Below, piece by piece: positions 10,561-57,154 of a stretch of DNA of 64,000 bases (the first letter of the stretch is position 1; each line of letters begins with the position of its first letter). The position numbers were made by a program, and so were the translations under genes. The stretch spans positions 19,745 to 83,744 of the forward strand of contig JAUNVD010000002.1 of assembly GCA_030537855.1 (NCBI GenBank), written 5' to 3'. A model generated the notes under the pieces. It had not been told where the DNA came from and did not search any database. It worked only from the letters and a program-made list of their open reading frames with translations. This stretch comes from Tissierellia bacterium. Its GTDB lineage: Bacteria; Bacillota; Clostridia; Tissierellales; Peptoniphilaceae.

Positions 10561-11916
10561 TTATCTTTCTTCTGGTGGAATAAATGGCATTGGGGCATTT
10601 AAGGTTACATAAGCAGGACGCATTATTTTATTGTCCATAACTTGTTCCATTCTATGGGCACACCAACCGGTAGTTCTCGAGACTCCAAAAAGTGGTGTGT
10701 ATAAATCATGGGGAATATCTAACATTTGATAAACTAATCCTGAATATAAGTCAACATTTGCTGGTGCAGGATAGTCTGTATTCCTTCTCTTTCGTAAAAG
10801 CTCGCCACCTATTTCTTCTATATCATTGATTAAAGCAAAGGATTCTTCAAAACCCTTTAATTTTGCTAGTTCTGCAGCTTTTTCTTTTAAGAGAACAGCT
10901 CGTGGATCTGACATAGTATAAACAGCATGTCCTAGTCCATAAATCAATCCTTTTTGGTCAAAAGCCCTTCCTTCTAAAATTTTCTCTAAATATTGGCGTA
11001 AAGCTTTTCGATCATCCCATCGTGGTAAATGTGCTTTAATGTCGTCAACCATAGATGCTACCATAAGATTTGCTCCACCATGGCGAGGCCCTTTTAGGGA
11101 ACCAAGGGCTGTGGCAATGGCAGAATAAGTGTCTGTTCCTGAAGAGGAAACTACATGAGTGGCAAAAGCAGAGTTATTACCTCCCCCATGTTCTGCATGA
11201 ACCACCATAAGAATATCTAGCATATCTACTTCTTCTTGGGTAAATTCTCTATTTTCACGTATTAAATGTAAAATATTTTCTGCTGTATTATATTCTTCTT
11301 TTGGACGATGGATGATTAAGGATTGGTCGTCAATATAATGTCTTTTTGCTGCATAACAATAAGCCATAATGGAAGGAATTTTAGCTATTAGGTTGATAGA
11401 TTGTTTTAAAACATTATAAGTATCTGTGTCATCTGGACTTTCGTCAAAGGTATATAATGCTAAAACAGATTGCATCATTTTATTCATAAGGTCCTTACTA
11501 GGAATTTTTAAAATAACATCTTCCAAGTACTTATCAGGAAGGGGACGTAATCGACAAAGGGTATCCTTATAAATTTTTAGATTTTCTTGATTTGGTAAAG
11601 AACCTAAAAGTAATAAATAGGATACTTCTTCAAAGATATTTCTACCTGTTTCTTCTCCGTTTTTGACGATATCAATTAAAGAATATCCTCGGTAACTAAG
11701 ATCACCTTCACAAGGGGTTTTTTCTCCGTCTACATATTTATATCCTTTTACATCGGCGACACGGGTGATTCCAACTAAAACCCCTGTACCATTTTTATTT
11801 CTTAGTCCTCGTTTTACTTTATATTTATCATATAATTCAGGTTGGATATAAGATCGCTTTTCAATGATGTCTACAAATTCTTTAAAACGATTCTTCAGTC
11901 CTCCATGTTGCTCCAT
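10561..11916 (-). CDS. citrate synthase
   Basis: GPRHGGAN and GLGHAVY motifs of the citrate synthase family. Start moved to ATG 11916 (RBS AAAGGTG). Confidence 0.9.
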   Translation of the reverse strand: MEQHGGLKNRFKEFVDIIEKRSYIQPELYDKYKVKRGLRNKNGTGVLVGITRVADVKGYKYVDGEKTPCEGDLSYRGYSLIDIVKNGEETGRNIFEEVSYLLLLGSLPNQENLKIYKDTLCRLRPLPDKYLEDVILKIPSKDLMNKMMQSVLALYTFDESPDDTDTYNVLKQSINLIAKIPSIMAYCYAAKRHYIDDQSLIIHRPKEEYNTAENILHLIRENREFTQEEVDMLDILMVVHAEHGGGNNSAFATHVVSSSGTDTYSAIATALGSLKGPRHGGANLMVASMVDDIKAHLPRWDDRKALRQYLEKILEGRAFDQKGLIYGLGHAVYTMSDPRAVLLKEKAAELAKLKGFEESFALINDIEEIGGELLRKRRNTDYPAPANVDLYSGLVYQMLDIPHDLYTPLFGVSRTTGWCAHRMEQVMDNKIMRPAYVTLNAPMPFIPPEER

Positions 11917-11921
11917 AATAT

Positions 11922-12920
11922 TCACCTTTCCATTTCTTTTAAAATACATGTAGTAAATTCTCTTGTCCCAACTTTTCCTCCAAGTTCATAGGTAAAGTTA
12001 TCTGTATTTGATAGTACTTTTTCAATGGCTTTCCGAATACTATTACCTTTATCTTCGTGACCGATATAATCTAAAAGCATAGCACCAGAAAGAAGGATAG
12101 CTGTTGGATTTGCTAAGTCTTTACCAGCTATATCTGGAGCTGATCCATGAACGGCTTCAAAAATAGCAAGATTTTCCCCAATATTAGCTCCAGGAATCAA
12201 TCCTAATCCTCCAACAAGTCCTGCACATAAATCGGATAAAATATCACCATATAAATTTTCGGTTACAATAACTTTATAATTTTCTGGATGCATAACCAAC
12301 TGCATACACATATTATCGATAAGGACTTCTTCTAGTTGGATACCTTTATAATTTTTTGCAACATCTCTAGCACACTGTAGAAATAAACCGTCGGTTAATT
12401 TCATAATATTTGCTTTAGTTACCACAGTCACTTTTTCGATTCCATGTTCTTTTGCATAGTCAAAGGCTTTTTTTATAATTCGTATTGATTTCTCCTGGGT
12501 GATCACCTTTATAGAGTGGGCTTCTGTAGGAGAAATTTGTTTTTCAATTCCTGCATATAAATCTTCTGTATTTTCCCGAAAAATAATGATATCTACATTT
12601 GGATATAATGAAGGAACTTTACCAATTCTCTTTACCGGGCGAATATTTGCATATAAATCATACTTTTTTCGAAGAGCTACATTTACACTGGAAAAGCCCT
12701 CTCCAATAGGTGTAGTAACAGGGCCTTTGATTCCAATTTTATTTTTTTCTAAGGATTGAAATAATTCTTCAGGAAGGTAAGTTCCAGTTTTTTTATAAGC
12801 ATCGGCTCCAGCTACATATTCTTCCCAAGTAATATCCAATCCTGTTTTTTCCATAACTGCTTTTAAGGATTTTATAATTTCTGGCCCAATTCCATCTCCA
12901 GGGATTAGTGTAATCTTCAT
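11922..12920 (-). CDS. icd: isocitrate dehydrogenase (isocitrate/isopropylmalate dehydrogenase family, short NAD-type)
   Basis: Family motifs (IRENTEDLY, NLYGDILSD). The call is supported by its position between aconitase and citrate synthase. Confidence 0.8.
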   Translation of the reverse strand: MKITLIPGDGIGPEIIKSLKAVMEKTGLDITWEEYVAGADAYKKTGTYLPEELFQSLEKNKIGIKGPVTTPIGEGFSSVNVALRKKYDLYANIRPVKRIGKVPSLYPNVDIIIFRENTEDLYAGIEKQISPTEAHSIKVITQEKSIRIIKKAFDYAKEHGIEKVTVVTKANIMKLTDGLFLQCARDVAKNYKGIQLEEVLIDNMCMQLVMHPENYKVIVTENLYGDILSDLCAGLVGGLGLIPGANIGENLAIFEAVHGSAPDIAGKDLANPTAILLSGAMLLDYIGHEDKGNSIRKAIEKVLSNTDNFTYELGGKVGTREFTTCILKEMER

Positions 12921-14848
12921 TTTTTTCCTCCATCTAAATGTTTTGAATAATTTAAATATCCACCTTCACGAAGAACAGCTTCTTCCCTTGGAGAAAGTGT
13001 AAGTTCTAGAAGGATATCGATATCTTTATTGACCACCTTTAAACGTAAATCCCCTTGACCAATGGTTTCCTTTAGGTTATCTAAACGTAGTAGATCTCCT
13101 TCTTCCAGTTTTTCATAATCTTCTTTATTTTTGAAAACCAATGGGAGAATACCTGTATTGATTAAATTAGATCGATGAATTCTTGCAAAACTTTTTGCAA
13201 TGACACCAACAATTCCTAAATATAAAGGAACTAAAGCTGCATGCTCTCTAGAGGAGCCTTGTCCATAATTTTCTCCTCCTACAATAAAACCACCATGATT
13301 TTCCTTAGCTCTTTGTTCAAAATCATCAATTAAAGTAGTAAAGGCAAAGGATGCTAAATGAGGAATATTGGAACGATAGGGGAGTAATTTTGCATTGGAA
13401 GGAACAATATCATCAGTTGTTATATTATCCCCAGCTTTAAAAATAATCTTTTTTTCTATAGTATTAGGTAAAGCTGTGTTAAGAGGGAAAGGCTTAATAT
13501 TTGGTCCCATCATTGTGGTTTTTCTTCTCTTATCTTTTTCCTTAGGATAGACAAAATAATGATCTACCTTACCATAAGAATCGGGTTCTTCTATTACTGG
13601 TGCAGACCAAGTAGAAGGGTCTGTTAAATAACCGGTAATAGCAGAAACTGCTGCTGTTTCTGGGCTGACAAGATAAACTTTTGCATCCTTAGTACCAGAA
13701 CGACCTTTAAAGTTTCGATTAAACGTCCGTAAAGAAACACCTTCAGATTTTGGGGCTTGTCCCATTCCTATACAAGGACCACAAGCAGACTCTAAAATTC
13801 TGGCTCCAGATAAAATCATTTGAGATAAGGCTCCATTTTCACTAAGTTGTCGTAAAATATTTGCAGATCCTGGACTGATAACTAAGGAGACATCAGGATG
13901 AACTTGTTTTCCCTTTAAAATTTCAGCTACCTTCATCATATCTCCATAGGAAGAATTGGTACAAGAGCCGATAGCCACTTGATCCACCTTTATCTTTTCA
14001 TCCTTTATTTCTAATACATTATCTGGACTATGAGGACCAGCAGTTAATGGAGTTAAAGTATTTAAATCAATGGAAATACTATTATCATAAATAGCATCAG
14101 CATCAGGAGAAAGAGGCAAATAATCTTTCTCTCTCCCTTGACGTTTTAAATATTTTCTTGTAATTTCGTCAGAAGGGAAAATAGACGTAGTTGCACCAAG
14201 TTCAGCCCCCATGTTACAAATAGTGGCTCGGTCAGTAACGGAAAGGTTTTTTACCCCTTCCCCAGTATATTCCATAATATACCCTACGCCACCTTTAACA
14301 GTTAAACGTCGCAGAACCTCTAAGATCACATCTTTGGCATTAACCATTGGAGGTAGAGATCCAGTTAATTCCACTTGAAAAACCTTAGGTGTCGTCAAAT
14401 AATAAATACCCCTTGCCATACCAACAGCCACATCTAATCCTCCAGCACCGATTGCTATCGCACCTAAACCTCCTCCAGTAGGAGTATGGGAATCAGAACC
14501 AATTAAAATAGTTCCTGGTATTCCAAATCGTTCTAAATGTACTTGATGACAAATCCCTCCTCCAGGTTTAGAAAAAATAATACCATATTTTTCAGCTGCG
14601 GATGCAATAAAGGCATGATCATCAGCGTTTTCGAAGCCAGACTGTAACATATTATGATCTATATATGCTACAGACAAGTCTGTTTGGACTTCTTCTGGTT
14701 CCATAGCTTCTAGTTGTAAATATGCCATTGTACCTGTAGAATCTTGGGTCAATGTTTGATTGACTTTTACTTTAATTTCTTCTCCTGGTTTTAAATTTCC
14801 TTCTAATAAATGAGATTCTAAAATTTTATAAGCTAAAGTTTTTCCCAT
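12917..14848 (-). CDS. acn: aconitate hydratase (~640-aa single-chain type)
   Basis: GSDSHT, IGSCTNSS, CGPCIG and GQGSSREHAA motifs. Start moved to MGKTLAYK (14848). The stop overlaps the icd start (ATGA). Confidence 0.9.
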   Translation of the reverse strand: MGKTLAYKILESHLLEGNLKPGEEIKVKVNQTLTQDSTGTMAYLQLEAMEPEEVQTDLSVAYIDHNMLQSGFENADDHAFIASAAEKYGIIFSKPGGGICHQVHLERFGIPGTILIGSDSHTPTGGGLGAIAIGAGGLDVAVGMARGIYYLTTPKVFQVELTGSLPPMVNAKDVILEVLRRLTVKGGVGYIMEYTGEGVKNLSVTDRATICNMGAELGATTSIFPSDEITRKYLKRQGREKDYLPLSPDADAIYDNSISIDLNTLTPLTAGPHSPDNVLEIKDEKIKVDQVAIGSCTNSSYGDMMKVAEILKGKQVHPDVSLVISPGSANILRQLSENGALSQMILSGARILESACGPCIGMGQAPKSEGVSLRTFNRNFKGRSGTKDAKVYLVSPETAAVSAITGYLTDPSTWSAPVIEEPDSYGKVDHYFVYPKEKDKRRKTTMMGPNIKPFPLNTALPNTIEKKIIFKAGDNITTDDIVPSNAKLLPYRSNIPHLASFAFTTLIDDFEQRAKENHGGFIVGGENYGQGSSREHAALVPLYLGIVGVIAKSFARIHRSNLINTGILPLVFKNKEDYEKLEEGDLLRLDNLKETIGQGDLRLKVVNKDIDILLELTLSPREEAVLREGGYLNYSKHLDGGKK

Positions 14849-14882
14849 TTTTACACATCCTAACCTAAAATTTTTATTTTCT

Positions 14883-14891
14883 ATTATATCA
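14883..14891 (-). promoter_or_regulatory. extended -10 promoter element of the acn operon
   Basis: TGATATAAT read on the minus strand, ~35 nt upstream of the acn start. Confidence 0.45.
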
Positions 14892-14963
14892 CAATGACTT
14901 GGTAAAATATATGATATTAAGGGAATCCTTAGAAAGAAAACATGTGCAATCACTCATGTAATC

Positions 14964-15074: not shown

Positions 15075-18000
15075 ATGAAACTGCATATGGGACTTGATGT
15101 AGGGTCTACTACTGTAAAATTAGTGGTCCTAAATCAAAAGCTGGAATTACTTTATTCCACTTACCGTCGTCATTTTTCAGATGTGAAAAAGACGGTAAAA
15201 GATGTAATGAATGATTGTTATCGAAAATTTAAATATGATACTGTTACCATTAATGTAACAGGTTCTGGAGGTCTTTCCGTTCATGAATCTTTGGAAATTC
15301 CTTTTATACAAGAAGTGGTAGCAGGAACTGAAGCTATTAAAGAATTTTTACCCCAAACAGATGTTGCGATAGAACTTGGGGGAGAAGATTCAAAAATCAC
15401 GTATCTAAAAGATAGTTTAGAACAAAGAATGAATAGTATCTGTGCTGGAGGGACTGGCGCTTTTATTGACCAGATGGCTAGCTTACTGGAAACTGATGCT
15501 GGAGGATTAAACGAACTTGCCAAGGAGCATAAAAAAATCTATCCCATTGCATCAAGATGTGGTGTGTTTGCTAAAACCGATGTCCAAGCCTTAGTAAATC
15601 AAGGAGCTACTAAAGCAGACATTGCAGGATCTGTATTTCAATCTGTAGTTAATCAAACAATTTCTAACTTAGCTTGTGGGCGGCCCATTGAAGGAAGGGT
15701 AGCCTTTTTAGGTGGACCACTTCACTTTTTGTCGGAACTTCGCAGTAGATTTATTGAAACTTTGGAACTTGGAGAAGAGGAAGCTCTCATACCAGAAAAC
15801 TCAGAGCTCTTTGTAGCATTAGGTGCTGCTATTGGAGGGATGGATAATGAGGGGATTTCCTTTTTAGAATTATATCAACGAGCGCAAAATCCTAAGGAAA
15901 CACCTAGAGATAGTGAGGATTTTCTACCACCCCTATTTTCTTCAAAAGAAGAATATGAGGAATTTAAAACACGTCATGAAACAGATTCCCTACCTGTAAA
16001 AGACATAGAAGAATATGAAGGGCCTATGTATCTTGGAATTGATGCTGGTTCTACTACTTCGAAGATGGTTCTTTTAGGTGAAAACAAAGAAATTTTATAT
16101 ACCTTTTATGGGTCCAACAAAGGATCTCCTTTAGAAATTATTCGGGAAAAAACTTTAGAAATTCTATCTCATTGTAATGAACAACGATGGATAGCAGCTG
16201 CTGGTTCCACTGGATATGGAGAAGATTTTATAAAATCAGCACTGGGACTTGATTTTGGAGAAGTTGAAACTATTGCCCATTTTAAGGCAGCGAAGTTCTT
16301 TGAACCTGAAGTTGATTTTATCTTGGACATTGGTGGACAAGATATGAAATCTATGAGAATTAAAGATGGAGTTATTGAATCTATCTTATTAAATGAAGCC
16401 TGTAGTTCTGGATGTGGTTCTTTCCTAGAAGCCTTTGCCAATACAGTACAAATGTCTGTAGAAGAATTTTCTAAAGTAGGTCTTTTAGCAAAACACCCGA
16501 TGGATTTAGGTAGTCGTTGTACTGTCTTTATGAATTCACTGGTGAAAAAAGCTCAAAAAGACGGAGCAGAAGTAGGAGATATTGCAGCTGGACTGGCGTA
16601 TTCTGTTATCAAGAATGCAATACAAAAAGTAATAAAGATTAGAGATCCTCGAGAACTAGGAGAGCATATTGTAGTCCAAGGTGGTACTTTTTATGGAGAT
16701 GCTGTACTACGTGCTTTTGAATTGATAACAGAAAGGGAAGTAATACGCCCAAATATTGCAGGGCTTATGGGGGCTCTTGGTATGGCTTTAATCGGAATGG
16801 AAAAAGGATTAGAAAAATCCTCTATTCTATCTCGTGGAGAAATGGAAACTTTAAGTTTTCAAACAAGAAATACTCATTGTAATCGCTGTACCAATCAATG
16901 TCCATTAACGATACATCTATTTTCCAATGGTAATCGCTTTATTACTGGGAATCGATGTGAACGAGGAGCAGGAGTGGTATACGAAAAAGGGGAGGAAATT
17001 CCAAACCTTTATGCCTATAAACTTCATCGTCTCTTTGATTATCGTCCTTTGGAAAAAGAGAGAGCAAAAAGAGGAACGGTAGGAATTCCAAGGGTTTTAA
17101 ATATGTATGAAAACTATCCTTTCTGGTTCCGTTTCTTTACCGAACTAGGGTATCATGTTGTTTTATCTGACATGACCACTAGGAAGTTATATGAAGAAGG
17201 AATGAAATCCATTATAAGCGAAACCGCATGTTATCCTGCAAAAATAAGTCATGGACATATTGAAAACTTAGTGAAGAAAGATGTGGATTTTATCTTTTAT
17301 CCATCTATATTTTATGAAGAACAAACCTATGAAAGTGCAGATAATACACTAAATTGTCCTGTAGTTGCAGGATATCCAGAAGTGATTGCTCATAATGTTT
17401 CCTCCTTAAAGGAAAATAATATACCTTTCCTACATCCATTTTTATCCTTTGACCATAGGAAAAAATTGGAAAAAAGATTAGGAGAAGTATTTAAAGACAT
17501 CCCTTATGGAGAAATAAAAAATGCGGTGCGAGCAGCTTATCGAGAGCAAGATGAATATCGAGAAGATGTGGCGAAAAAGGGAAGAGAAACTTTACAATAT
17601 CTAGAAGAGAATCATAAAAAAGGAATTGTACTAGCTGGAAGACCCTATCATGTGGATCCGGAAATCAACCATGGTGTACCTGGATTAATCACATCTCTAG
17701 GATTAGCAGTTTTATCAGAAGATTCTATTGCTGGAGATGTAGAACTTGAGGGAAGACTACGAGTACTTGACCAATGGAATTATCATTCCAAACTTTACCG
17801 AAGTGCACAGTTTGTAGGGGAACATAAAAATTTGGAAATGGTACAACTAAACTCCTTTGGTTGTGGACTAGATGCAGTGACCACAGACCAAGTGAATGAG
17901 ATTTTAGCCTCCTATCATAAAATTTACACCGTCTTAAAAATTGATGAAGTCAATAATTTAGGAGCGGTAAAAATAAGGTTACGTTCCTTATTAGAAGCTG

Positions 18001-19886: not shown

Positions 19887-22800
19887 ATGAGAAAAGAAAA
19901 AAGTAAATATTTACGACTACTATTTATATTAATGTTAATACTTGGAATCATCATTCCAACATCGATTTTTGCAGCAGAAAAGCCTTTTACACGTATTTTT
20001 AATACAAAGATAAAAGGTGAGATAAAAATCACAGGAAATACTTTACAAAGACCGGCTGATAAAACGGAAAAAGCAGAAAATGCATTAGCAGGAAAAACCA
20101 CAGATGGAAACAATCAATTTAAAATGAAAAAGCTGGATGTGGATACTGATGCCGGTACCTCCAGTTCATCTTCAGCTAATTTGGTTTTTGCTCCTAAGGC
20201 AAAAGTGGAAAAGGCATTTCTGGTTTGGGGTGCGACTACAACAGGAGGTACACCTGCCACTGTTAATGCCGGGCATCCACCTACCATTAAATTTAAAACC
20301 CCTAAATCAAAAAATTACCAAGTTATTTCACCTACAGGGTGGAATCAATTTAGTGAAGGAAAAAAAGATTATAGCGCCTATGCCGATGTAACAGAATTAG
20401 TAAAATCGGGAGGAGCTGGAACCTACTGGGGAGCAGATATTCCTCAAAGCACAGATGCGACGGATCGCTATGGTGGGTGGTCTTTAGTAGTCGTCTTTCA
20501 AAATGATGATCGACCAAAAAACGACTTATCCATATTTTTTGGACATAAAGTTGTTAAGAATACCACAGGTATTCAAATTCCTATAACAGGAATCCAAACC
20601 CCTGCAGTTGGGCCAGTTCATGCAAAGGTAGGATTTGTCGCCTGGGAAGGTGATGCAAAGTATAATAATGACCATGCATTGATAAATGTAAATGGTAAAT
20701 TTGAAGAACTTTTCAACCAAACATCGCCTAAAGATAATTTCTTTAATTCAACCATTTCAGATAATGGTGCATATTTAACCAATCGTAATCCTGCTTATGT
20801 TAACAATATGGGTATCGATGCAAAAATTATTAATATTGATGGAAAATTAAAAAATAGTGCTACCAGTGCAAAATTTAAATTTGACAGTGGTGGAGACTGG
20901 TATTATCCCACGATTCTAACCAGTGAAATCGAAATGTATGCACCGGATCTTAAGGTGACAAAAACGGTAGAAAATCTTTCAGGGCATACCCCGGCGAAAG
21001 AGGGAGATATTTTAGAATATACGGTTCATTTTGAAAATATAGGCATAGACACGGCCATGCATACCGTAGCTAAGGATTTGATACCTGATGGGTTGGAATA
21101 TGTGCCAGGTACCATTAAAGTTACTAACGGACAAAATTCAGGGCCTAGGACCGATGCCAAAGATGATGACAGTGCAGAGTATGATACAGCAACAAAGAAC
21201 CTTATCCTTCGAGTGGGAAATAATCCGACCAATAACAATACAGATCCCGAAGGAGGCTCATTGGAACATGAACAGGTTTATGAAGCAAAATTTCAAGCAA
21301 AAATCTTACCAGAAGGAGTGGGAAGTCCCCTTACTAATGAAATAAAAGTAACTTATGATGGTACTGACGGAACCCCTGCCAATACAGGTTTAGATGGAAG
21401 CGGATCTGTAACCACTCCTACAGAAGAAGCCAATCCACAAATTAAATTTACAAAAACATCAAATAAAGATTCAAGTTATCGATTGGTAAAAGGAGAAACC
21501 ATTACCTATACCTTTACAGTAGAAAATACTGGAAATGTTACGTTAAAAGATGCCAAAGTTACTGACCCAATGGAAGGCCTTAATCCAAAAGAAATAAAAT
21601 TGGATAAAACCACTTTAGCACCGGGAGGAGTAGCTACAGCCTCAGCCACCTATACCATTACACAAGATGATGTAGATGCTGGGAAAGTGGAAAATACTGC
21701 AACAGCAACGGTAAAACCTCCTAGGGGAGAATCCTTCTCTACAACAGCAACATCTACAGTTCCAGGATCGCCAGAACCGAAAGTCCTTTTTACAAAAACT
21801 TCGGATAAAAACTCGGATTATCGTTTAATAGCAGGAGAAACCATTACCTATACCTTTAAAGTGAAAAATACGGGAAATATCACTTTAAAAGACCTTACGT
21901 TAAATGACCCAATGAAAGGGTTAAAACAAAATGGTAAGGAAGTAGAAGGTGGAGTTCTTACATTAGATAAAACCACCTTGGCACCAGAAGAAACTGCTAC
22001 AGCCACGGCTACCTACCTCATCACCCAGGCAGATGTAGATAAGGGCTCAGTGACCAATAAAGCAATAACAAAAATGAAAACACCGGATGGTACGGAAATC
22101 CAAAGAGATGCCACAGCTACCGTACCTGCATCTCCAGGGCCTGATGCAACATTTGAAAAGACGACAGATAAAAAACCGGACTATAATTTAAAAGTAGGAG
22201 ATACCATTGAATATACCTTTACCTTAACCAATACAGGGAATTTAACATTAAAAAATCTTTCCCTGACTGATGAAATGCCTGGTTTATCCACACCGACATT
22301 TGATAAAACAGAATTGGCACCGGGAGGAGTAGCTACAGCCAAAGCTACCTATACGATTACCCAAATAGACGTGGACAAGGGATCAGTAACCAATAACGCA
22401 GTGGCAAAAATGACGACTCCTGATGGTAAGGAGATGCAAAGAAATGCAACAGCCACAGTACCGTCCAAGCCGTCGCCGGACTTTACCTTTGAAAAGACCA
22501 CTGATAAAAAACCATCCTATCGATTAAAAGTCGGAGATGTTATTACCTATACCTTTAAAGTGAAAAATACGGGAAATGTGACTTTAAACAATGTCCAAGT
22601 AACAGATCCTATGCCAAATTTATCTTCCTTTACCTTTAACAATGTTACTTTGGCACCGGGAGAGACTGAAACGGCCACAGCCACCTATACCATTACCCAG
22701 GCGGATGTAGATAACGGAGCCATTAATAATACGGCAACGGCTACTGTTACGCCACCATCAGGAACACCTATAGAAAAAGATGCTTCGGCAAGGGTACCGG

Positions 22801-26608: not shown

Positions 26609-29299
26609 ATGCTTAAAAAAGAAAGCAAATATTTAAAGATATTTATAATGATACTAATTCTATTCATTTTCAGTCCCGTAAGTATATATGCGGATCAATT
26701 AGATTTCTATGCCATTTATAATGAGCAAATGAAAGGTGAAATCAAGATAACAGGGAACACGTTACAAACTCCTGATTCCAATTCACTAAATTCTGATGAA
26801 ATTGAAAAAATATTGACTGGCAAAAAATTGGAAAATAATAATGATTTGTTTATGACTCACTTAGATGTAGATGGAGATGGGAATACGATAAACTCCTCTT
26901 CTGCAGACCTGGAGATTTCTCCTGGCGCTAAGATACACAGGGCTTTTCTTGTTTGGGGAGCAAATGTAACTAAAGAAAAAACAGATGTACCAACTGTAGT
27001 AACAGAAAGTAAACCACCAACAATTGAAATTAAAACGCCAAAAATGGATTATAAAAAGTTGAAACCCACACACTGGAATCAGTTTACAAAAAAAGATAAT
27101 GTGAAATATGATTATACCGCTTATGTAGATGTAACTGAGATCGTTAAGGATGGAGGAGCAGGAACGTATACATGTGCGAATATCCCTCAAGGAACAGGAG
27201 CAAAGGATGTATATGGTGGTTGGTCTTTAATTACTGTCTTCGAAGATAAAACAAAGCCTTTAAATGACTTATCTATATACTTTGGACATAAAATTGTAAC
27301 AAGCAAAGCTCCAGGTAACCTTCTGGAAATTCCTATTCAAGGTTTTAAGACTCCGGATCAAGGGGAGGTTCATGCCAAACTTGGGATAGTTACTTGGGAA
27401 GGGGATCGGAAAAAAGGAAACGAGAAGTGTAAAGATTCTTTAACATTTGGAGGGAAAAAACTTTCGGATGTTCTAACGAATGAAGATAATTTTTTTGATT
27501 CTGGAGTAACCTATAATGAAAAATTAATAGGAAATAGAAATCCTGCTTATGTTAATAATCTAGGTATTGATGCTAAAATTTTCAATCAAGATGGAGTATT
27601 AAAGAATAGTGTAAATTCTACTACTTTAAAACTAGAAAGTAATTGGGAATGGTATTACCCAACAATAGTTACTACAGAAATTGAACTTTATGCTCCTGAT
27701 ATCAAAGTAGAAAAAGAAGTAAAAAATATTAATGGAAGTAAAATTGCAAAATTTGGAGATATTTTAGAATATACAGTTGAAGTAAAAAATCAATCCACAG
27801 ATACATCAATCAATACCATCGCTTCAGATATATTACCAGAAGGAATAGACTATGTACCTAATACCATTAAAGTATTAGAGGAATCGAAATTCGTTTCAAA
27901 AACAGATGAATCGGGAGATGATAACTGTGAATATGATAGTTCAAACCGAAAAATAGTTTTACGAATAGGAAAAGATTCTGTTAATACAGGAGAAGTAAAA
28001 GGTGGAAATCTTAGTAAAGATGAAGTTTTCATAGCTAAATTTCAAGGAAAAGTAAACGAAAAAAAATTAGGTTCCGTAATTAGAAATACAGTAAAAGTTA
28101 ACTTTGATGGTAGTGTTGCTAAAAGTCTAGAAGAAGAAGGCTCTGTTGAGATTACTACCGAAGAATTGAATTCTGGTCTAACTCTTTCAAAACAAGCAAA
28201 TAAGAAATCAAACACACCATTAAAACTAGGGGAAGTCATTACCTATACTTTTATTGTTAAAAATACGGGAAATAACACTATTTATAACATTGATATTTCA
28301 GATCCTTTAAAAGGATTATCAAAAATAAGTATTGATAAAAAAGATTTAGAACCTGGGGAAACTTTAACAGGAAAAGCGAATTATATAGTAACAAAGAAGG
28401 ATGTATCCATAGGAAAAATAGAAAATATAGCATCAGCAACAGGAGAAACTGTAAAGGGAGAAAAAGTGGAAGCTTCCGATACTCTCGTTTTAGGACGAGG
28501 AGAAACTCCAGAACCAGGAGGAACTGGAGGGCACTCTACAGGAAAGAAACACTATAAGGTAAAGAAAAATCCTGATATATCTCTAAATCGCGAACTACAC
28601 TATGCATATATGTTTGGCTATCCCCAAGGAGACTTTAGACCGGAACGACCCATTACTCGTGCAGAAGCTGCTGTTCTCTTTACAAGACTTAGTGTAGAAA
28701 CAGGAGATCCTGGTGTTTCAGATACTAAGTATCCTGATGTAGTCCAAGATAGTTGGTATGCAGATGCTGTGAATTATCTAAGCCATAAAGGGATTATTAA
28801 AGGTTATGAAGATGGCCTTTTCCGTCCAAATCAAGAAATTTCAAGGGCGGAATTTGCAGCCATTGCCAGTCGATATGAAAGATACACTGGTGATACCGTT
28901 AAGAACTTCCCAGATGTAGATAAAACACATTGGGCAATGAATGATATTAATAGTGCGTCCTCAGCAGGTTGGATCAATGGGTATCCAGACGGAACCTTTA
29001 AGCCGGCACAAAGTATTACTCGTGCAGAAGTGGTTACCATTGTGAATCGCATGCTTTATAGAGTCTGTGATAAAGAATTTATTCTAAGTCATTTGAAAGA
29101 CGAAAATTTAAGAACCTTTACGGATCTACAAGATTTGAAATACTGGGCATTCTTTGAAATTATGGAAGCAACCAATGGTCATGATTTTAATCGATTGGAA
29201 GATGGAAAGAATGAGAAATGGCTACTATTAAATGACAAAGATTTTTACTATGACAAACATTTAAAGGATATGAAAGTCAATAAAAAATATTATAAGTAA
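26609..29299 (+). CDS. SLH-anchored surface protein, paralog 2 (896 aa): head + DUF11-type domain + 1 repeat + 3 SLH + tail
   Basis: RBS AAGGAGAG and a signal peptide. Same domain order as paralog 1, with a single ITYTFIVKNTGNNTI repeat. Confidence 0.9.
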   Translation: MLKKESKYLKIFIMILILFIFSPVSIYADQLDFYAIYNEQMKGEIKITGNTLQTPDSNSLNSDEIEKILTGKKLENNNDLFMTHLDVDGDGNTINSSSADLEISPGAKIHRAFLVWGANVTKEKTDVPTVVTESKPPTIEIKTPKMDYKKLKPTHWNQFTKKDNVKYDYTAYVDVTEIVKDGGAGTYTCANIPQGTGAKDVYGGWSLITVFEDKTKPLNDLSIYFGHKIVTSKAPGNLLEIPIQGFKTPDQGEVHAKLGIVTWEGDRKKGNEKCKDSLTFGGKKLSDVLTNEDNFFDSGVTYNEKLIGNRNPAYVNNLGIDAKIFNQDGVLKNSVNSTTLKLESNWEWYYPTIVTTEIELYAPDIKVEKEVKNINGSKIAKFGDILEYTVEVKNQSTDTSINTIASDILPEGIDYVPNTIKVLEESKFVSKTDESGDDNCEYDSSNRKIVLRIGKDSVNTGEVKGGNLSKDEVFIAKFQGKVNEKKLGSVIRNTVKVNFDGSVAKSLEEEGSVEITTEELNSGLTLSKQANKKSNTPLKLGEVITYTFIVKNTGNNTIYNIDISDPLKGLSKISIDKKDLEPGETLTGKANYIVTKKDVSIGKIENIASATGETVKGEKVEASDTLVLGRGETPEPGGTGGHSTGKKHYKVKKNPDISLNRELHYAYMFGYPQGDFRPERPITRAEAAVLFTRLSVETGDPGVSDTKYPDVVQDSWYADAVNYLSHKGIIKGYEDGLFRPNQEISRAEFAAIASRYERYTGDTVKNFPDVDKTHWAMNDINSASSAGWINGYPDGTFKPAQSITRAEVVTIVNRMLYRVCDKEFILSHLKDENLRTFTDLQDLKYWAFFEIMEATNGHDFNRLEDGKNEKWLLLNDKDFYYDKHLKDMKVNKKYYK

Positions 29300-29310
29300 A
29301 TTGTTAAAAA

Positions 29311-29337
29311 GGCTCAACTTCGGTTGGGTCTTTTTTA
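29311..29337 (+). terminator. intrinsic terminator of paralog 2 (sequence-related to the paralog 1 terminator)
   Basis: GGCTCAAC-ttcg-GTTGGGTC plus TTTTTT. Confidence 0.75.
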
Positions 29338-29792
29338 TTTGATTGATAATGATAAGACTAAATTCATTTACTCCCTTTCATATATGAATTAACAATTAAA
29401 AGATATAATACATAAGATGGACTTTTGTTATTAAAAAATAAAATCTTAACAATGGTGTTTTATGATATAAAAAAATAAATTGAAGTATTTAGAATAAAGA
29501 AAAAAATTTTTAATTATAACAACATGATTAAAAATAAAAAAGAAGTTTTAAACTAATAAACAATTTAGTTTATATATGTTAAAATATGGTAAAGAATAAT
29601 TTTTCAAGGAATTTAAATAATATTTATAAATAAAATAGCTATAAATAAGAAAATTTCTTTTAAAATTGTGAGAATTTATGTCCATGAAGGAGAGGATTTA
29701 TGAAAGGGGAAAAGCTTTTACTTAAATGATTTTATGTTTTATATTGTGTTGAAAGTAAATGAAAAAGTAAGGAAGAAAGGAAGGTTGATACC

Positions 29793-32700
29793 ATGAAGGA
29801 GAAAGGAAGAATAAAGGGACCTCTGTCGTTTATCTTAACGATTTTGATGATAATGATACTGTCCACGTCGGTTTTTGCAGTTAACGAAGCAGAATTTACC
29901 CAAATTTATAAAAAACAAATGAGAGGGGAAATAAAGATTATTGGGAATACCTTACAAAAACCAAAGGGAAAAACAACTCCACCGGTTAATAAGAATAATA
30001 ATGATTTTACCATGGAACTCGTAGACACAGATGGTGATACAAGTACGAAAAGTTCTTCTTCTGCAGATTTAGAAATTAATACTGGGGCTAAGGTTGCAAA
30101 AGCCTATTTAATCTGGGGAGCAACTGCAGATGGAGAAACTAATGTAGAAGTAAGTGATGCTAAACCACCTACCATTAAGTTCAAAATACCAGGTGGAGAA
30201 TATGAAGAATTAACAGCTGGAATGGTGACAACAGACATTATAGGTAGTACTCCTAGTGAAATAAAAGGCTGGAATAATCTTGGGAATGGGGGTTATAAAA
30301 GTGCTTATACAGCTTGTGCAGATGTGACGGATCTTGTTAAAGAAAAAGGAGGTCCTGGGACCTATTGGGTTGCTGATATACCACAAGGCACAGAACTTAC
30401 TGATAGATTTGGAGGCTGGTCACTTGTTGTCGTCTTTGAAGATGAAAGTAAACCTTTAAATGATTTATCTATATTCTTTGGTCATAAAGCTTTAAGTAAA
30501 GTGGAAGAGGAAGATATTGAGATTACAGGAATTAAAACACCAAAAAATGATGCTGTTTTGGGAAAAGTTGGTATGGTTGTTTGGGAAGGAGATGCCGGTA
30601 ATAAAGGAGATGGATTTTTATTAAATGATATCCCTCTATCTGATAATGCATCTCCCATTGATAATTTCTTCAATTCTAGAATTTCTAACGAAGGAGTTCT
30701 TCTAACAAATAGAAATCCAAACTTTGAAAATAATATGGGAATTGATGCAAAAATTATAAATATTGATGGTAAATTAGAGAATAATGTTACAGAGGCTAGA
30801 TTCACTTTTAAGACTGATGGAGATTGGTATTATCCCACGATTTTAACCAGTCAAATTCAATTATATCAACCTGAAATTAATCCTAAGAAAAGCGTTACAG
30901 TATTTAGAGACGGAGATAAAATCACTGGAGATGCAAAAATTGGGGATGACCTGGAATATATCATTGAATTAGAAAATGAAGGAAAAGATACAGCGAAAGA
31001 GATAGTTCTTACCGATACCTTACCAAAGGGAATAACTTTGGATCAGACTTCCATAAAAATTCAAAAGCCTAAGGACTCCGCATTTGTAGGTCCTGATCCT
31101 GACACTGTTAGTTATGACGAAAATGAGGGTAAACTTAAAGTATTTGTTGGAGAAGGAGCAACTGGAACAACAGGAGGCACATTATCTTTTGAAGAAGTTT
31201 ATAAGGTAAAATATAAAGCAAAGATTAACGAAAAAGCATATAAAAATGGAACCACAAATAAGGTAGCAGTAGATTACAATGGGGAAGATGGCGCAGTTAA
31301 TCTAACAGGAGAAACAGAAGTTACCGTTCCTATGGAACCGGAAAATCCCATTATAGAAATTACAAAAACAGCAGAAGCACCGACTGAACTTAAAGTTGGG
31401 GAAAAGATTAAATACAAATTTGAGATTTCAAATAAAGGAAATGTCAAATTACAAGATTTTACACTTACAGATAAGAAATTAGGAATAATAAATGAAGAAA
31501 TTGTCGGTTCATTGGAACCAGGAAAAACAATGGAAGTTCAACATAAGGACTATTTTGATTATCAAATCACACAAGATGATGTTGATAAAGGTATAATTGC
31601 CAATACAGCTACGGTAACAGGAAAATCATTATCTGGTAAAGAAGATGATGATACTGATTCGGCAAAACCTATAAAAATCCCGGCGAAGGGGGAATTAACC
31701 TTTACTAAGTTGGCAAATGTAGGTGAATTGCCAGATAAAGATGGAAAGATTAAGTATACATTTAAAGTAAAAAATACAGGAAATGTGACCTTACATGATA
31801 TAAATGTGGCTGACCCTATGCTTAATTTATCAGATATAACTTGGGATAACAAGACCTTAGCACCAGGTAAAGAAGCTGAAGGAACGGCAACCTATACCGT
31901 TACCCAAGATGATGTGGATAAAGGATTAACAAATGTAGCAACTCTAACAGCAAAGACTCCTTCAAATTTTGAGTTGAAAGCAACGGATTCTGTAACCTTA
32001 GATTCCACTGGAGTGGCTCAATTAGAATTTGAAAAAACATCGGATGTAGCAAAAGATAAATCAGCCACTTTAGGTCAAAAAATCACCTATACCTTTACAG
32101 TAAAAAATACAGGTACAATAACTTTAGAAGATATAGAAGTAGAAGATCCTTTCTTTAGTTCATCAAGTATTACTTGGGATAAAACGACTTTACCACCAAA
32201 TGAAACAGCTACAGGAACGGCAACCTATACAGTTATTCAATATGATGTGGATAATGGTTTTATTAAGAATCAAGCTACTGTTACTGCGAAGCCTATAGGA
32301 AAAGATAAGCCTATAACCCAAACGAAGACTTTAATCATTCGAACTGAACAAAAACCAGATTATACTTTAACGAAGACGAGTGATAAAGATGGAAACTATA
32401 AATTAATTGCCGGAGATACTATTAAATATCGTTTTAAAATTGAAAATATAGGAAATGTTAAACTTGAAGATATTAAGTTAGAAGATAAACTTGAAGGATT
32501 ATCAAATATTACGTTAGATAAAAAAGTACTACCTAAAGGAGAATCTACAGAAGTATCTGCGGATTATATAGTAAAACAAAAAGATGTGGATAATGGTGTA
32601 TTAACAAATTATGCAAAAGCAAGTGCAAATACATTAAACAAACCAGAAGATGTAGATGATATTATTCGAACCAATTTTGTTTCTTTATTTGCAGACCGAC

Positions 32701-34193
32701 AACCGGCTCTTACCTTAGAAAAGACTTCAGACAAGGCCGAAGATTATAAATTAGTTGCTGGAGATACCATCATCTATACCTTTAAAGCGAAAAATACTGG
32801 AAATGTTACGTTAACGGATATTAGTGTAACGGATAAGCTAAAGGGTATATCGGATGTAACTTGGGATAAAACAGAAATTGCTCCGGGGAAAACTGCCATA
32901 GGTAGAGCCACTTATATCATAAAACAAAGTGATGTGGATAAAGGTGAGATTGTCAATACTGCCACTGCTAAGGCCAAAGGGCCTGTAGGTACAGTACCTC
33001 CTGTATCGGAACCTGCTTCTTTGACCATTCCTGCGAAAAAGGCACCGGGAATCACCTTAAAGAAGACGGTGGATCGTAATCCAAATCAACCATTAAGAGT
33101 TGGAGAAACTATCATCTATCAATTTGAATATGAAAATACTGGAAATGTAACCTTAAATAATATTACTATTAAGGATGCAATGAAAGGTCTTTCAGAAATT
33201 GAAATGGATCGTAGTACTCTTTTACCTGGAGAGATTGGTCATGGAAAGGCAACCTATACTGTAACAGCAAAAGATATAGCAATAGGTTTCATTAAAAATA
33301 ATGCCAAAGTATCAGCAACGACTTTCCAAACGGATCCAACGGTAACCGGAGAAGAAGTTATAGCCACTGCCTCTATTACCATTGGTCGTAAAGGTGGAGG
33401 AATGGGAGGTTCTTCTGGAGGAAGTCATGGCTCTGGAACCATTGTGGTGAAACCGGATGTGATAAATCCTGATATTTCCCTAAATCGTGAACTACACTAT
33501 GCCTATATGTTTGGATATCCTCAAGGAGACTTTAGACCGGAACGAGCCATTACTCGTGCCGAAGCTGCTGTTCTCTTTACAAGACTTAGTGTGGAAACAG
33601 GAGATCCTGGTGTTTCAAAAGCAGAGTATCCAGATGTTCCTCAAGATACTTGGTATTCAGATGCTGTAAATTATCTAAGCCATAAGGGAATCATCAAAGG
33701 ATATGAAGATGGTCTTTTCCGACCGAATCAAGAAATTTCAAGGGCAGAATTCGCAGCTATTGCCAGTCGTTACGAAAGATATTCTGGGGATACTGAAAAG
33801 ACTTTCCCAGATGTAGATAAGAATCATTGGGCGATAAAAGATATTAGTAGTGCTGCTTCTGCAGGTTGGATCAATGGGTATCCTGACGGAACCTTTAAGC
33901 CGGCACAAAGTATTACTCGTGCAGAAGTGGTTACCATTGTGAATCGTATGCTTCACCGTGTATGTGACAAAGAATTTATTCTAAGTCATTTGAAAGATAA
34001 AAAGCTTAGAACTTTTACAGATTTACAAGATGTGAAGTACTGGGCATTCTTTGAAATTATGGAAGCAACCAATGGTCATGATTTCAACAGACTGAAAGAT
34101 GGATCCGAGGAATGGATTAAATTAAATGACAAGGACTTTTACTATGACAAGCATTTGGAAGATATGAAAGTCAACGAAAAATTTTATAAGTAA
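29793..34193 (+). CDS. SLH-anchored giant surface protein, paralog 3 (1466 aa): head + DUF11-type domain + 6 repeats + 3 SLH + tail
   Basis: Signal peptide ending VFA/VN. Same domain order as the other two paralogs, with six more diverged repeats. Confidence 0.9.
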   Translation: MKEKGRIKGPLSFILTILMIMILSTSVFAVNEAEFTQIYKKQMRGEIKIIGNTLQKPKGKTTPPVNKNNNDFTMELVDTDGDTSTKSSSSADLEINTGAKVAKAYLIWGATADGETNVEVSDAKPPTIKFKIPGGEYEELTAGMVTTDIIGSTPSEIKGWNNLGNGGYKSAYTACADVTDLVKEKGGPGTYWVADIPQGTELTDRFGGWSLVVVFEDESKPLNDLSIFFGHKALSKVEEEDIEITGIKTPKNDAVLGKVGMVVWEGDAGNKGDGFLLNDIPLSDNASPIDNFFNSRISNEGVLLTNRNPNFENNMGIDAKIINIDGKLENNVTEARFTFKTDGDWYYPTILTSQIQLYQPEINPKKSVTVFRDGDKITGDAKIGDDLEYIIELENEGKDTAKEIVLTDTLPKGITLDQTSIKIQKPKDSAFVGPDPDTVSYDENEGKLKVFVGEGATGTTGGTLSFEEVYKVKYKAKINEKAYKNGTTNKVAVDYNGEDGAVNLTGETEVTVPMEPENPIIEITKTAEAPTELKVGEKIKYKFEISNKGNVKLQDFTLTDKKLGIINEEIVGSLEPGKTMEVQHKDYFDYQITQDDVDKGIIANTATVTGKSLSGKEDDDTDSAKPIKIPAKGELTFTKLANVGELPDKDGKIKYTFKVKNTGNVTLHDINVADPMLNLSDITWDNKTLAPGKEAEGTATYTVTQDDVDKGLTNVATLTAKTPSNFELKATDSVTLDSTGVAQLEFEKTSDVAKDKSATLGQKITYTFTVKNTGTITLEDIEVEDPFFSSSSITWDKTTLPPNETATGTATYTVIQYDVDNGFIKNQATVTAKPIGKDKPITQTKTLIIRTEQKPDYTLTKTSDKDGNYKLIAGDTIKYRFKIENIGNVKLEDIKLEDKLEGLSNITLDKKVLPKGESTEVSADYIVKQKDVDNGVLTNYAKASANTLNKPEDVDDIIRTNFVSLFADRQPALTLEKTSDKAEDYKLVAGDTIIYTFKAKNTGNVTLTDISVTDKLKGISDVTWDKTEIAPGKTAIGRATYIIKQSDVDKGEIVNTATAKAKGPVGTVPPVSEPASLTIPAKKAPGITLKKTVDRNPNQPLRVGETIIYQFEYENTGNVTLNNITIKDAMKGLSEIEMDRSTLLPGEIGHGKATYTVTAKDIAIGFIKNNAKVSATTFQTDPTVTGEEVIATASITIGRKGGGMGGSSGGSHGSGTIVVKPDVINPDISLNRELHYAYMFGYPQGDFRPERAITRAEAAVLFTRLSVETGDPGVSKAEYPDVPQDTWYSDAVNYLSHKGIIKGYEDGLFRPNQEISRAEFAAIASRYERYSGDTEKTFPDVDKNHWAIKDISSAASAGWINGYPDGTFKPAQSITRAEVVTIVNRMLHRVCDKEFILSHLKDKKLRTFTDLQDVKYWAFFEIMEATNGHDFNRLKDGSEEWIKLNDKDFYYDKHLEDMKVNEKFYK
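31340..33390 (+). repeat. in-frame tandem array of 6 diverged ~105-120-aa coding repeats
   Basis: Hand count. Repeat cores are KYKFEISNKGNVKL, KYTFKVKNTGNVTL, TYTFTVKNTGTITL, KYRFKIENIGNVKL, IYTFKAKNTGNVTL and IYQFEYENTGNVTL. Confidence 0.8.
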
Positions 34194-34226: not shown

Positions 34227-34266
34227 CAAAAAGCTGTTTTGGAAATGAATCCAAAACAGCTTTTTA
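34227..34266. terminator. bidirectional intrinsic terminator (paralog 3 / chorismate mutase)
   Basis: AAAAGCTGTTTTGG / CCAAAACAGCTTTT with A- and T-runs on either side. Confidence 0.8.
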
Positions 34267-44338: not shown

Positions 44339-44361
44339 TAAATCATAGAAAAATAATTCAC

Positions 44362-44507
44362 ATATCTTCAGGGCGAGGTGAAATTCCTCACCGGTGGTTA
44401 TAGTCCACGAGTCGAAAGATTGAATCGGTGAAATTCCGATACCGACGGTACAGTCCGGATGAAAGAAGGTTGCGTATGCAAGTTGCCCCGAAGATGGGCA
44501 TTTTTTT
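44362..44507 (+). promoter_or_regulatory. FMN riboswitch (RFN element) with terminator-type expression platform
   Basis: TCTTCAGGGCGAGGTGAAATTCCTCACCGGTGGTTATAGTCCACGAG ... GGTGAAATTCCGATACCGACGGTACAGTCCGGATGAAAGAAGG matches the RFN core. It is followed by a short hairpin and T7. Confidence 0.9.
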
Positions 44508-44535
44508 ATGCCAGTATATTCTTTGGGAGGTATGT

Positions 44536-45150
44536 ATGAACCAAGTTAATCAAGTAAGAAAAAATCGTATTGAAACTGCCACAATGGTTAAAGTTTCTGT
44601 ATTGTCCGTCATTGCCTATATGTTAATGTATATTGATTTTCCATTAGGTTTTATTGCACCACCTTTTATTAAAATGGATATTTCCGATATGCCTGCACTT
44701 ATAGGTGGATTTGCTATGGGTCCTGTTGTTGGAGTAGGAATTGAACTATTTAAAAACATATTACACATTTTATTAAAAGGTACATCTACAGGAGGAGTAG
44801 GGGAACTTTCTAATTTTTTAATCGGGTCTATCTTTGTTTTTACAGCAGCAACCATTTATAAAAAACATAGAACGTATAAAGGAGCTTTTTTCGGTCTCTT
44901 AGCAGGAATCATCGCTATGACAGTTTTAGCTACGGTAAGTAATTATTTTGTGGTATTCCCACTATATGCTAAACTTATGGTACCAATGGAAACAATTATA
45001 GAAATGGGTTCAGCAGTAAGTCCTAGAATTACAGATTTATGGACAATGATGATTTATTCTATTGCACCATTTAATATTTTAAAAGGACTCTTAGTTTCTG
45101 CAGTTACTATGTTACTCTATAAGAGAGTCTCTCATATTTTGCATAAATAA
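44536..45150 (+). CDS. ribU: riboflavin ECF-transporter S component RibU
   Basis: Six-TM ECF S-component downstream of the FMN riboswitch. Start at ATG 44536 behind GGGAGG. The ORF-track start at 44428 lies inside the riboswitch. Confidence 0.85.
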   Translation: MNQVNQVRKNRIETATMVKVSVLSVIAYMLMYIDFPLGFIAPPFIKMDISDMPALIGGFAMGPVVGVGIELFKNILHILLKGTSTGGVGELSNFLIGSIFVFTAATIYKKHRTYKGAFFGLLAGIIAMTVLATVSNYFVVFPLYAKLMVPMETIIEMGSAVSPRITDLWTMMIYSIAPFNILKGLLVSAVTMLLYKRVSHILHK

Positions 45151-57076: not shown

Positions 57077-57154
57077 GCACTCGTAGCTCAGCCTGGATAG
57101 AGCAACGGACTTCGGATCCGTGTGTCAGGGGTTCGAATCCTCTCGGGTGCACCA
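57077..57154 (+). tRNA. tRNA-Arg (anticodon UCG), CCA encoded
   Basis: Hand-folded cloverleaf. Acceptor stem GCACTCG/CGGGTGC, D arm GCTC/GAGC, anticodon stem ACGGA/TCCGT with loop CTTCGGA, T arm AGGGG-TTCGAAT-CCTCT. Confidence 0.9.

Follow-up and report, generated by a model that had tools for sequence, protein, structure and literature searches.

Three tandem paralogous surface proteins of a Tissierellia bacterium are probable SLH-anchored fibrillar adhesin-like proteins with CLIPPER-type stalks

Introduction

What are the three very large surface proteins that are encoded side by side in an uncultured Tissierellia bacterium, and do they make up a system that has not been described before? 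The question arises from a 64-kb stretch of DNA (the window) on contig JAUNVD010000002.1 of the metagenome-assembled genome (MAG) GCA_030537855.1. Within it, three consecutive genes on the + strand, designated here A (19887..26372, 2161 amino acids [aa]), B (26609..29299, 896 aa) and C (29793..34193, 1466 aa), encode the proteins MDO5712941, MDO5712942 and MDO5712943, all located on one MAG contig of 105,862 bp. The deposited annotation of each reads only "S-layer homology domain-containing protein", and a preliminary description of the DNA had put them forward as an undescribed surface or adhesion system. We consider it probable that A, B and C are paralogous fibrillar adhesin-like proteins that are anchored by S-layer homology (SLH) domains to a Gram-positive-type envelope, with stalks made of isopeptide-type CLIPPER domains and a DUF3344-like domain at the tip.

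Fibrillar adhesins are defined as proteins composed of a tip, a stalk and an anchor, and SLH is among the listed anchors (PMC8286594). A survey published in 2025 renamed DUF11 and DUF7507 as CLIPPER and CLIPPER_2, stalk domains of fibrillar adhesins, and the structure of a CLIPPER domain with a Lys-Asn isopeptide bond has been solved (PMC12617251). The DUF3344-type domain (cluster 23) is a recurrent N-terminal domain of predicted fibrillar adhesins, and its function is regarded as ambiguous and possibly catalytic (Monzon et al. 2022, PMC9210967).

Results

Three proteins share one modular plan

The three proteins have in common a signal peptide, a head of ~320 aa, one CLIPPER (DUF11) domain, 12, 1 or 6 CLIPPER_2 (DUF7507) modules in A, B and C, respectively, a Gly-rich linker, three SLH motifs and a conserved tail. 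The preliminary description had proposed three same-strand genes of these lengths built on one plan, and the open reading frames (ORFs), Pfam, NCBIfam and a local hidden Markov model (HMM) bore out every structural detail. The SLH and DUF11-type content that it foresaw was recovered by profile searches far above the cutoffs (DUF7507, DUF11, SLH and TIGR01451), and the Gly-rich linkers are present as they had been quoted.

By inspection, the N-termini combine a basic n-region with a hydrophobic core and close with a cleavage-type I/V-F/Y-A sequence, after residue 29 in A, 28 in B and 29 in C. The putative signal peptides hence span aa 1-29 of A (…TSIFA, followed by AE; 19887..19973), aa 1-28 of B (26609..26692) and aa 1-29 of C (29793..29879), all on the + strand, as are all further coordinates within the trio. 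With these Sec-type N-termini and three SLH motifs, each protein carries both a secretion signal and a surface anchor, as fibrillar adhesin-like proteins do.

The stalks consist of diverged isopeptide-type modules

Each stalk opens with a single CLIPPER domain identified by Pfam and NCBIfam (A, aa 351-514, 20937..21428; B, 27689..28165; C, 30864..31340), which in protein A also matches TIGR04226, an isopeptide-forming domain of NCBIfam. The CLIPPER_2 modules that follow, delimited by the local HMM, occupy aa 515-1889 in A (21429..25553), aa 520-633 in B (28166..28507) and aa 517-1200 in C (31341..33392). In Pfam, the DUF7507 model (PF24346) scored 1036.8, 88.3 and 449.9 bits against A, B and C, with a cutoff of 27, and the leading DUF11 and the three SLH motifs were likewise far above their gathering scores; in NCBIfam, TIGR01451 matched 13, 2 and 7 times. 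The total of CLIPPER and CLIPPER_2 domains is 13 in A, 7 in C and 2 in B. All three proteins are thereby equipped with stalk families of fibrillar adhesin-like proteins, B being a minimal case.

When all CLIPPER_2 modules were aligned, the Lys, Asp and Asn residues of the isopeptide triad were each invariant (19/19), and their order and spacing match Table 1 of PMC12617251. The triad residues were also seen, by inspection, in the leading CLIPPER domain of A, B and C. Intramolecular isopeptide bonds are hence predicted for the stalk modules of the three proteins.

Identity among the CLIPPER_2 modules is 29-62%, apart from one pair at 76%. The last modules (A m12, B m1 and C m6) form a separate group with 43-49% identity, in which the single module of B finds its nearest relatives, and this grouping points to a conserved module at the base of the stalk. 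Modules m1-m11 of A are mutually 46-62% identical (76% for m10/m11), which indicates an old internal expansion; Tandem Repeats Finder reported a single two-copy array at 75% identity, namely the m10/m11 pair. The modules appear too diverged for recombination-driven changes in length, so that the length of each stalk is apparently fixed and not switchable. The stalk-coding part of gene A (window positions 20001-26000) has a GC fraction of 0.385-0.40 (whole window, ~0.33), and its AT skew is strongly positive (0.22-0.28); both most likely stem from the composition of the Thr/Gly/Ala/Pro-rich repeats rather than from a foreign origin.

Stalks that differ so greatly in the number of domains (13, 2 and 7) raise the thought that the long protein A serves mainly as a spacer or shield, controlling access to the surface or the distance between cells, with length outweighing any binding by the head. 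It is an accepted idea that long surface proteins, for example SasG, can regulate sterically (PMC8201768; PMC9210967), and the Periscope Proteins SasG and Sgo_0707 resemble A, B and C in that a rod of Ig-like repeats sets the distance of the tip from the wall (PMC8201768). Periscope Proteins are, however, defined by highly identical repeats, the number of which varies between strains (PMC8201768). The long, highly identical tandem repeats of that definition are absent from A, B and C, in which the repeats have diverged to the levels given above, the longest exact DNA repeat in 19887-34193 is 62 bp, and the different lengths are fixed in separate genes. The strong conservation of the head across phyla also argues for a function of the tip itself, and we regard the spacer explanation as improbable.

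The anchor is a portable SLH cassette with a C-terminal tail

The translations place a Gly-rich linker between stalk and anchor (A, …PGGIGGIGGHHGDNNGGHPSG…, 25554..25664; B, PGGTGGHSTG…, 28508..28585; C, GGGMGGSSGGSHGSG…, 33393..33482). The three SLH motifs of each protein (Pfam PF00395, 122-127 bits) lie at 25665..26129 in A and, together with the tail and the stop codon, at 28586..29299 in B and 33483..34193 in C. A sequence search of the PDB matched this region to Sap and other SLH chains. For the C-terminal 251 residues of A, an AlphaFold2 (AF2) model reached a predicted template modelling (TM) score, pTM, of 0.80, and its best Foldseek matches were the SLH domains of Bacillus anthracis Sap and Paenibacillus alvei SpaA, with a probability of 1.0 and target-normalised TM-scores of 0.61-0.69. 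The matched structures (6bt4, 3pyw and 6cw entries) were solved with pyruvylated secondary cell-wall polymer (SCWP). The sequence ITRAE or ISRAE is kept in 9/9 SLH motifs of the trio, TRAE being intact in each of those of A. Since the fold matches and T/S-R-A-E is present in all nine motifs, binding of pyruvylated SCWP is the expected mechanism, and by analogy with Sap and SpaA we infer that the cassettes would be held by this polymer non-covalently. Among the 33 ORFs of the window that were scanned, all within its first 51.4 kb, there was no match to PS_pyruv_trans, the family of the pyruvyl transferase CsaB.

The likeness to the Sap and SpaA domains (PDB 3pyw, 6bt4, 6cwc and 7sv4) extends to the three SLH motifs of TRAE type and to the predicted fold. 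Unlike those domains, the cassette in the window is C-terminal and not N-terminal, its first motif lacks the usual leading segment, and a tail of ~80 aa (…ATNGHD[FY]…) follows it. In gene A this tail (…ATNGHDF…), identified from the alignment and the AF2 model, occupies 26130..26372 with the stop codon, and the predicted local distance difference test (pLDDT) values of the C-terminal model remain at ~80-92 up to roughly residue 215. The tail motif is common to other Clostridia-type surface proteins. Tail and SLH subtype recur together on unrelated passengers, for example P0177 and a group of ~1050-aa proteins with Flg_new, DUF5979 and DUF7601 domains. The tail would therefore be part of a portable anchor cassette and, judged from these sequences, is not special to A, B and C. 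We also asked whether the tail holds a fourth, degenerate SLH half-motif: the top-scoring local alignment fell on the right helix (YWAY…), but 42-177 of 500 shuffles of the window proteins scored equally well, and the candidate was rejected as not significant.

The SLH annotation of A, B and C would also suit subunits of an S-layer or another envelope lattice, that is, components of a paracrystalline layer and not projecting fibres, and SLH domains do anchor genuine S-layer proteins, Sap and SpaA among them. The beads-on-a-string arrangement of isopeptide-type Ig-like domains below a single tip is, instead, the plan of fibrillar adhesins. In addition, the three paralogs differ greatly in length, the identical type of SLH and tail cassette sits on unrelated passengers, and the searches revealed nothing outside the SLH region that resembles a known lattice-forming domain; a role as lattice subunits is hence very unlikely.

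The head belongs to a large family of tip domains

The head spans aa 30-350 of A (19974..20936), aa 29-360 of B (26693..27688) and aa 30-357 of C (29880..30863); that of A was delimited with an AF2 model, homologs and conserved residues, and that of B by comparison with paralogs and homologs. The AF2 model of the A head is all-beta, with a pLDDT of 92.6. Searches of Pfam and NCBIfam gave no match to the heads except for a sub-threshold one between head C and DUF3344 (PF11824; 21.7 bits, E=1.7e-4, gathering cutoff 27.2 bits). Heads A and B had no match to this family, and PF11824 weakly matched 2 of 23 aligned members of the head family at E<=0.01. These results indicate that the heads form a DUF3344-related branch that is poorly covered by PF11824, and are not scored members of it. 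An adhesive Pfam family, of which the definition of fibrillar adhesin-like proteins asks for at least one (Monzon et al. 2021), was not among the matches of the head, which resembles the "novel tip" clusters of PMC9210967. The domains of cluster 23 are similar in being all-beta, ~300 aa long and N-terminal on long, repeat-rich surface proteins, and the window heads differ in falling below the PF11824 cutoff or being unmatched.

The nearest proteins to the head in a word-indexed search are 43-48% identical. When 1.84 billion cluster representatives were searched with a profile, 13,799 matched at E<=1e-3, of which 3,985 reached E<=1e-30, totals that overstate the size of the head family because the profile took in the first DUF11 columns. 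The top listed matches are giant proteins of up to 5.8 thousand aa, mostly with the head at the N-terminus, and among 183 head-bearing proteins examined the head started within the first 150 residues in 178. An SLH anchor was found in six of these 183 (three of them A, B and C) and an LPXTG-like motif in 21, and in the head-bearing protein P0187 a CHU_C type IX secretion domain was confirmed.

Conserved positions across 157 family members are D83, D85, T90, S93, S94, W113, D166-V-T168, G196-W197, E253-G-D255, D261, N283-F-F-x-S287, N305, D310 and N322; no His, Cys or Met is conserved among them. The resulting acidic and polar motifs (D-x-D, ADVT, GGW, EGD, NFFxS and a stretch of the form NP…N…G-D) fit the coordination of Ca2+ or of a ligand, and catalysis is also possible. 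Structural Ca2+ sites of adhesin domains typically have a D-x-D-x-D loop together with acidic clusters.

No match was obtained when the head profile was searched against PDB sequences. Foldseek searches of the PDB and BFVD with the model gave only generic two-jelly-roll similarity, with TM-scores of at most 0.33, and no fold was assigned; the matches included PNGase F, peptidylglycine monooxygenase, Cry toxin domains, GH86 accessory domains and phage tail or capsid proteins.

The nature of the conserved residues bears on the alternative that A, B and C are "fibrillar enzymes", in which a catalytic head, for instance one that modifies glycans or peptides, is held on the stalk to act on external polymers. 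The most conserved of them are acidic or polar (D83, D85, D166, E253, D255, D261, D310 and several Asn, Ser and Thr), a pattern more in keeping with an active or metal site than with a binding surface that evolves fast. Among the best PDB matches are the two-jelly-roll enzymes PNGase F and peptidylglycine alpha-hydroxylating monooxygenase, and Monzon et al. placed the DUF3344 cluster among the "ambiguous", possibly catalytic tips (PMC9210967). Against this stand the weakness of those fold matches (TM ~0.2-0.27, root-mean-square deviation >13 Å), the lack of conserved His, Cys and Met, which means that the copper sites of the monooxygenase are absent, and the failure of any enzyme family in Pfam or NCBIfam to match. 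Acidic loops and clusters such as those of the head are, moreover, also typical of structural Ca2+ sites. An enzymatic head thus seems to us rather unlikely, and a binding tip is preferred.

The three genes are old paralogs

A, B and C are real paralogs and not one mis-assembled gene. The possibility that a single repeat-rich gene had been wrongly assembled as three, which the preliminary description had itself raised, draws some weight from the source, as the contig belongs to a MAG and close homologs in other MAGs are often split or cut at contig ends. The heads, however, are only 48-56% identical in protein and ~64-67% in DNA, four-fold degenerate sites between them are saturated (27-37% identical), exact repeats do not exceed the 62 bp given above, and start context, upstream region and terminator are separate for every gene; an artefact of this kind is hardly credible.

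In a neighbour-joining tree the heads of A, B and C are as distant from each other as from homologs in other MAGs, so that the duplications must be old. The SLH and tail regions are 76-89% identical among the three proteins, and the paralogy claimed in the preliminary description is supported. The anchor of A is only 37-45% identical to those of B and C at four-fold sites, and its likeness to them hence reflects selection. Between B and C the corresponding value is 62%, with 76% identical codons, from which it appears that the B and C anchors are younger or have been exchanged.

Clustering at 90% identity left A and C as singletons and joined B with two short fragments (55 and 46 aa); an exact look-up of protein B in the contig index gave no match. 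The same architecture of head, CLIPPER, CLIPPER_2, SLH and tail was found as a single gene in P0176 (959 aa, locus L019, in an unrelated context), with one CLIPPER_2 module, and in P0043, with two. A head-based synteny scan of genome contigs yielded 16 loci (best identity 55%), many of them cut at contig ends; these had no flanks in common with the window and, within the stretches examined, neither tandem heads nor SLH. A flank-based scan of metagenomes with the activase-related gene upstream of the trio yielded 80 loci (best identity 66%), none of them with adhesin genes or the neighbours seen in the window. The closest head homolog, P0001 (493 aa; locus L002, 10001-14177), is followed by an overlapping 910-aa ORF with eight CLIPPER_2 modules, and the two look like fragments of a single giant gene, broken by either a frameshift or faulty assembly.

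Each gene carries its own expression signals

Ribosome-binding site (RBS)-like sequences, AAGGAGG for A, AAAGGAG for B and GGAAGG for C, were found 6-10 nt 5' of the starts, and the upstream gaps measure 558, 236 and 493 nt with a GC fraction of 0.20-0.27. That of gene A (19329..19886, GC 0.22) has its RBS near 19873 and is without an Rfam element; it also contains an A-rich short tandem repeat (19474-19542; 11-nt unit, 6.3 copies, 73% matches). On the + strand, the region's three strongest terminator hairpins lie directly 3' of the three stop codons: a 13-bp stem followed by a T run after A (26380..26409), a hairpin after B (29306..29335) and a 16-bp stem after C (34228..34265). The separate RBS, AT-rich upstream region and terminator that had been proposed for each gene are, as sequence signals, present in all three cases. 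The hairpins of A and B resemble each other in the stem sequence GGCTCAAC…GTTGAG, so that the duplication of the anchor-coding end probably took in the 3' flank as well. At Rfam gathering thresholds no riboswitch or other RNA element was found in the three upstream regions, a permissive scan giving one match at chance level, and comparison of these regions revealed no common promoter or untranslated element beyond AT-rich chance matches and the similar terminator stems.

Flanking genes and other features of the window

On the 5' side of the trio lie genes for citrate synthase, isocitrate dehydrogenase, aconitase, FeoB and a 1417-aa acyl-CoA-dehydratase-activase-related protein, and on the 3' side those for a DASS/citrate-type transporter and an IclR regulator. 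The citrate synthase, isocitrate dehydrogenase and aconitase genes form a compact cluster (10561-14953, - strand) just upstream of the activase gene. The activase-related fusion protein (15075-19328, + strand) has 572 confirmed metagenomic homologs, with 53-66% identity among the best 80; because the neighbours seen in the window are absent beside the homologs in the loci inspected, the lineage appears to be poorly sampled.

Further downstream, an FMN riboswitch (110 bits; 44360-44474, + strand) lies directly 5' of the ORF 44428..45150 and overlaps its listed GTG start. This ORF, an S-component of an energy-coupling factor (ECF) transporter, is probably a riboflavin transporter, and its true start codon probably lies further downstream. 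A 314-aa ORF (42370-43314, - strand; 313 aa scanned), unrelated to the trio, contains a copper amine oxidase N-terminal-like domain (PF07833), which is frequent in envelope proteins of Clostridia. The sole tRNA gene of the window is that for tRNA-Arg (TCG; 57077-57154, + strand).

Discussion

The architecture of A, B and C suggests how they could work. The proteins would be exported by the Sec pathway, as their N-terminal sequences imply, and the signal peptide removed. The three SLH motifs with the tail are predicted to fold as an SLH module of three helix pairs and would bind pyruvylated SCWP non-covalently, the ligand being suggested by Sap and SpaA. A short Gly-rich hinge would lead into a rod of Ig-like CLIPPER and CLIPPER_2 domains (two in B, seven in C and 13 in A), in which isopeptide bonds formed by the triad could yield a stalk resistant to proteases and force. 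By a rule of thumb of ~4 nm per domain, a value not measured here, the stalks would extend roughly 8 (B), 28 (C) and 50 (A) nm, and stalks of 2, 7 and 13 domains make three heights above the wall a reasonable supposition. The most likely task of the head, placed at the tip, is to bind a ligand outside the cell, for example a glycan or the surface of another cell, and the head probably holds Ca2+. The heads separated long ago, and the anchors of B and C appear to be of more recent common origin; the anchors would stay similar because the same wall polymer must be fitted. With separate RBSs, upstream regions and terminators, the cell could show related but distinct tips at different heights.

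Several observations weigh against this proposal. The head has no informative structural relative, so that adhesion is assigned by architecture only, and a catalytic site would account equally well for its strongly conserved acidic residues. The stalk of B has only two domains and may be too short for its head to emerge from the wall.

Compared with other fibrillar adhesins that have CLIPPER or CLIPPER_2 stalks, A, B and C are alike in the signal peptide, the N-terminal tip, the tandem stalk, the C-terminal anchor and the Lys-Asp-Asn triad, and differ in that the tip is not a characterised adhesive domain and that three paralogs stand in tandem. SLH, which accompanies the stalks here, is unmentioned in the text of the CLIPPER survey (PMC12617251). 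A precedent for tandem adhesin paralogs with different repeat numbers is sdrC-sdrD-sdrE of Staphylococcus aureus, wall-anchored paralogs with divergent tips, 2, 5 and 3 Ig-like B repeats of ~110 aa and a common anchor (PMC3098876). The Sdr proteins are unlike A, B and C in their MSCRAMM A region, CnaB-type B repeats and SD-repeat spacer, and in their covalent LPXTG/sortase attachment as against non-covalent SLH.

Two further views of the preliminary description accord with our data: the C-terminal SLH anchor with an outward head is supported by the three SLH motifs and the predicted SLH fold, and the trio stands as an accessory block among metabolic or regulatory neighbours. The notion of an undescribed surface or adhesion system did not hold, since every module is of a described kind (PMC12617251, PMC8286594, PMC9210967) and P0176 and P0043 are single-gene counterparts. 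A bolder interpretation would make the head an unrecognised Ca2+-dependent lectin or enzyme that is used across phyla on varied anchors, its three versions at set heights forming a layered surface for capture or processing and not a set of redundant adhesins; we give this a small chance beside the fibrillar adhesin-like reading that we favor.

For the organism, the finding means that an uncultured member of the Tissierellia devotes 14 kb to three isopeptide-type surface fibres, with SLH anchoring that would be non-covalent and not by sortase. The locus itself leaves the present understanding of surface proteins unchanged. What gives it wider interest is the head, a member of a very large family of tips that is spread across phyla and lacks a solved structure, with thousands of 50%-identity clusters matching the head and CLIPPER profile, and for which the confident model of the A head and the list of conserved residues make tests of binding or activity straightforward.

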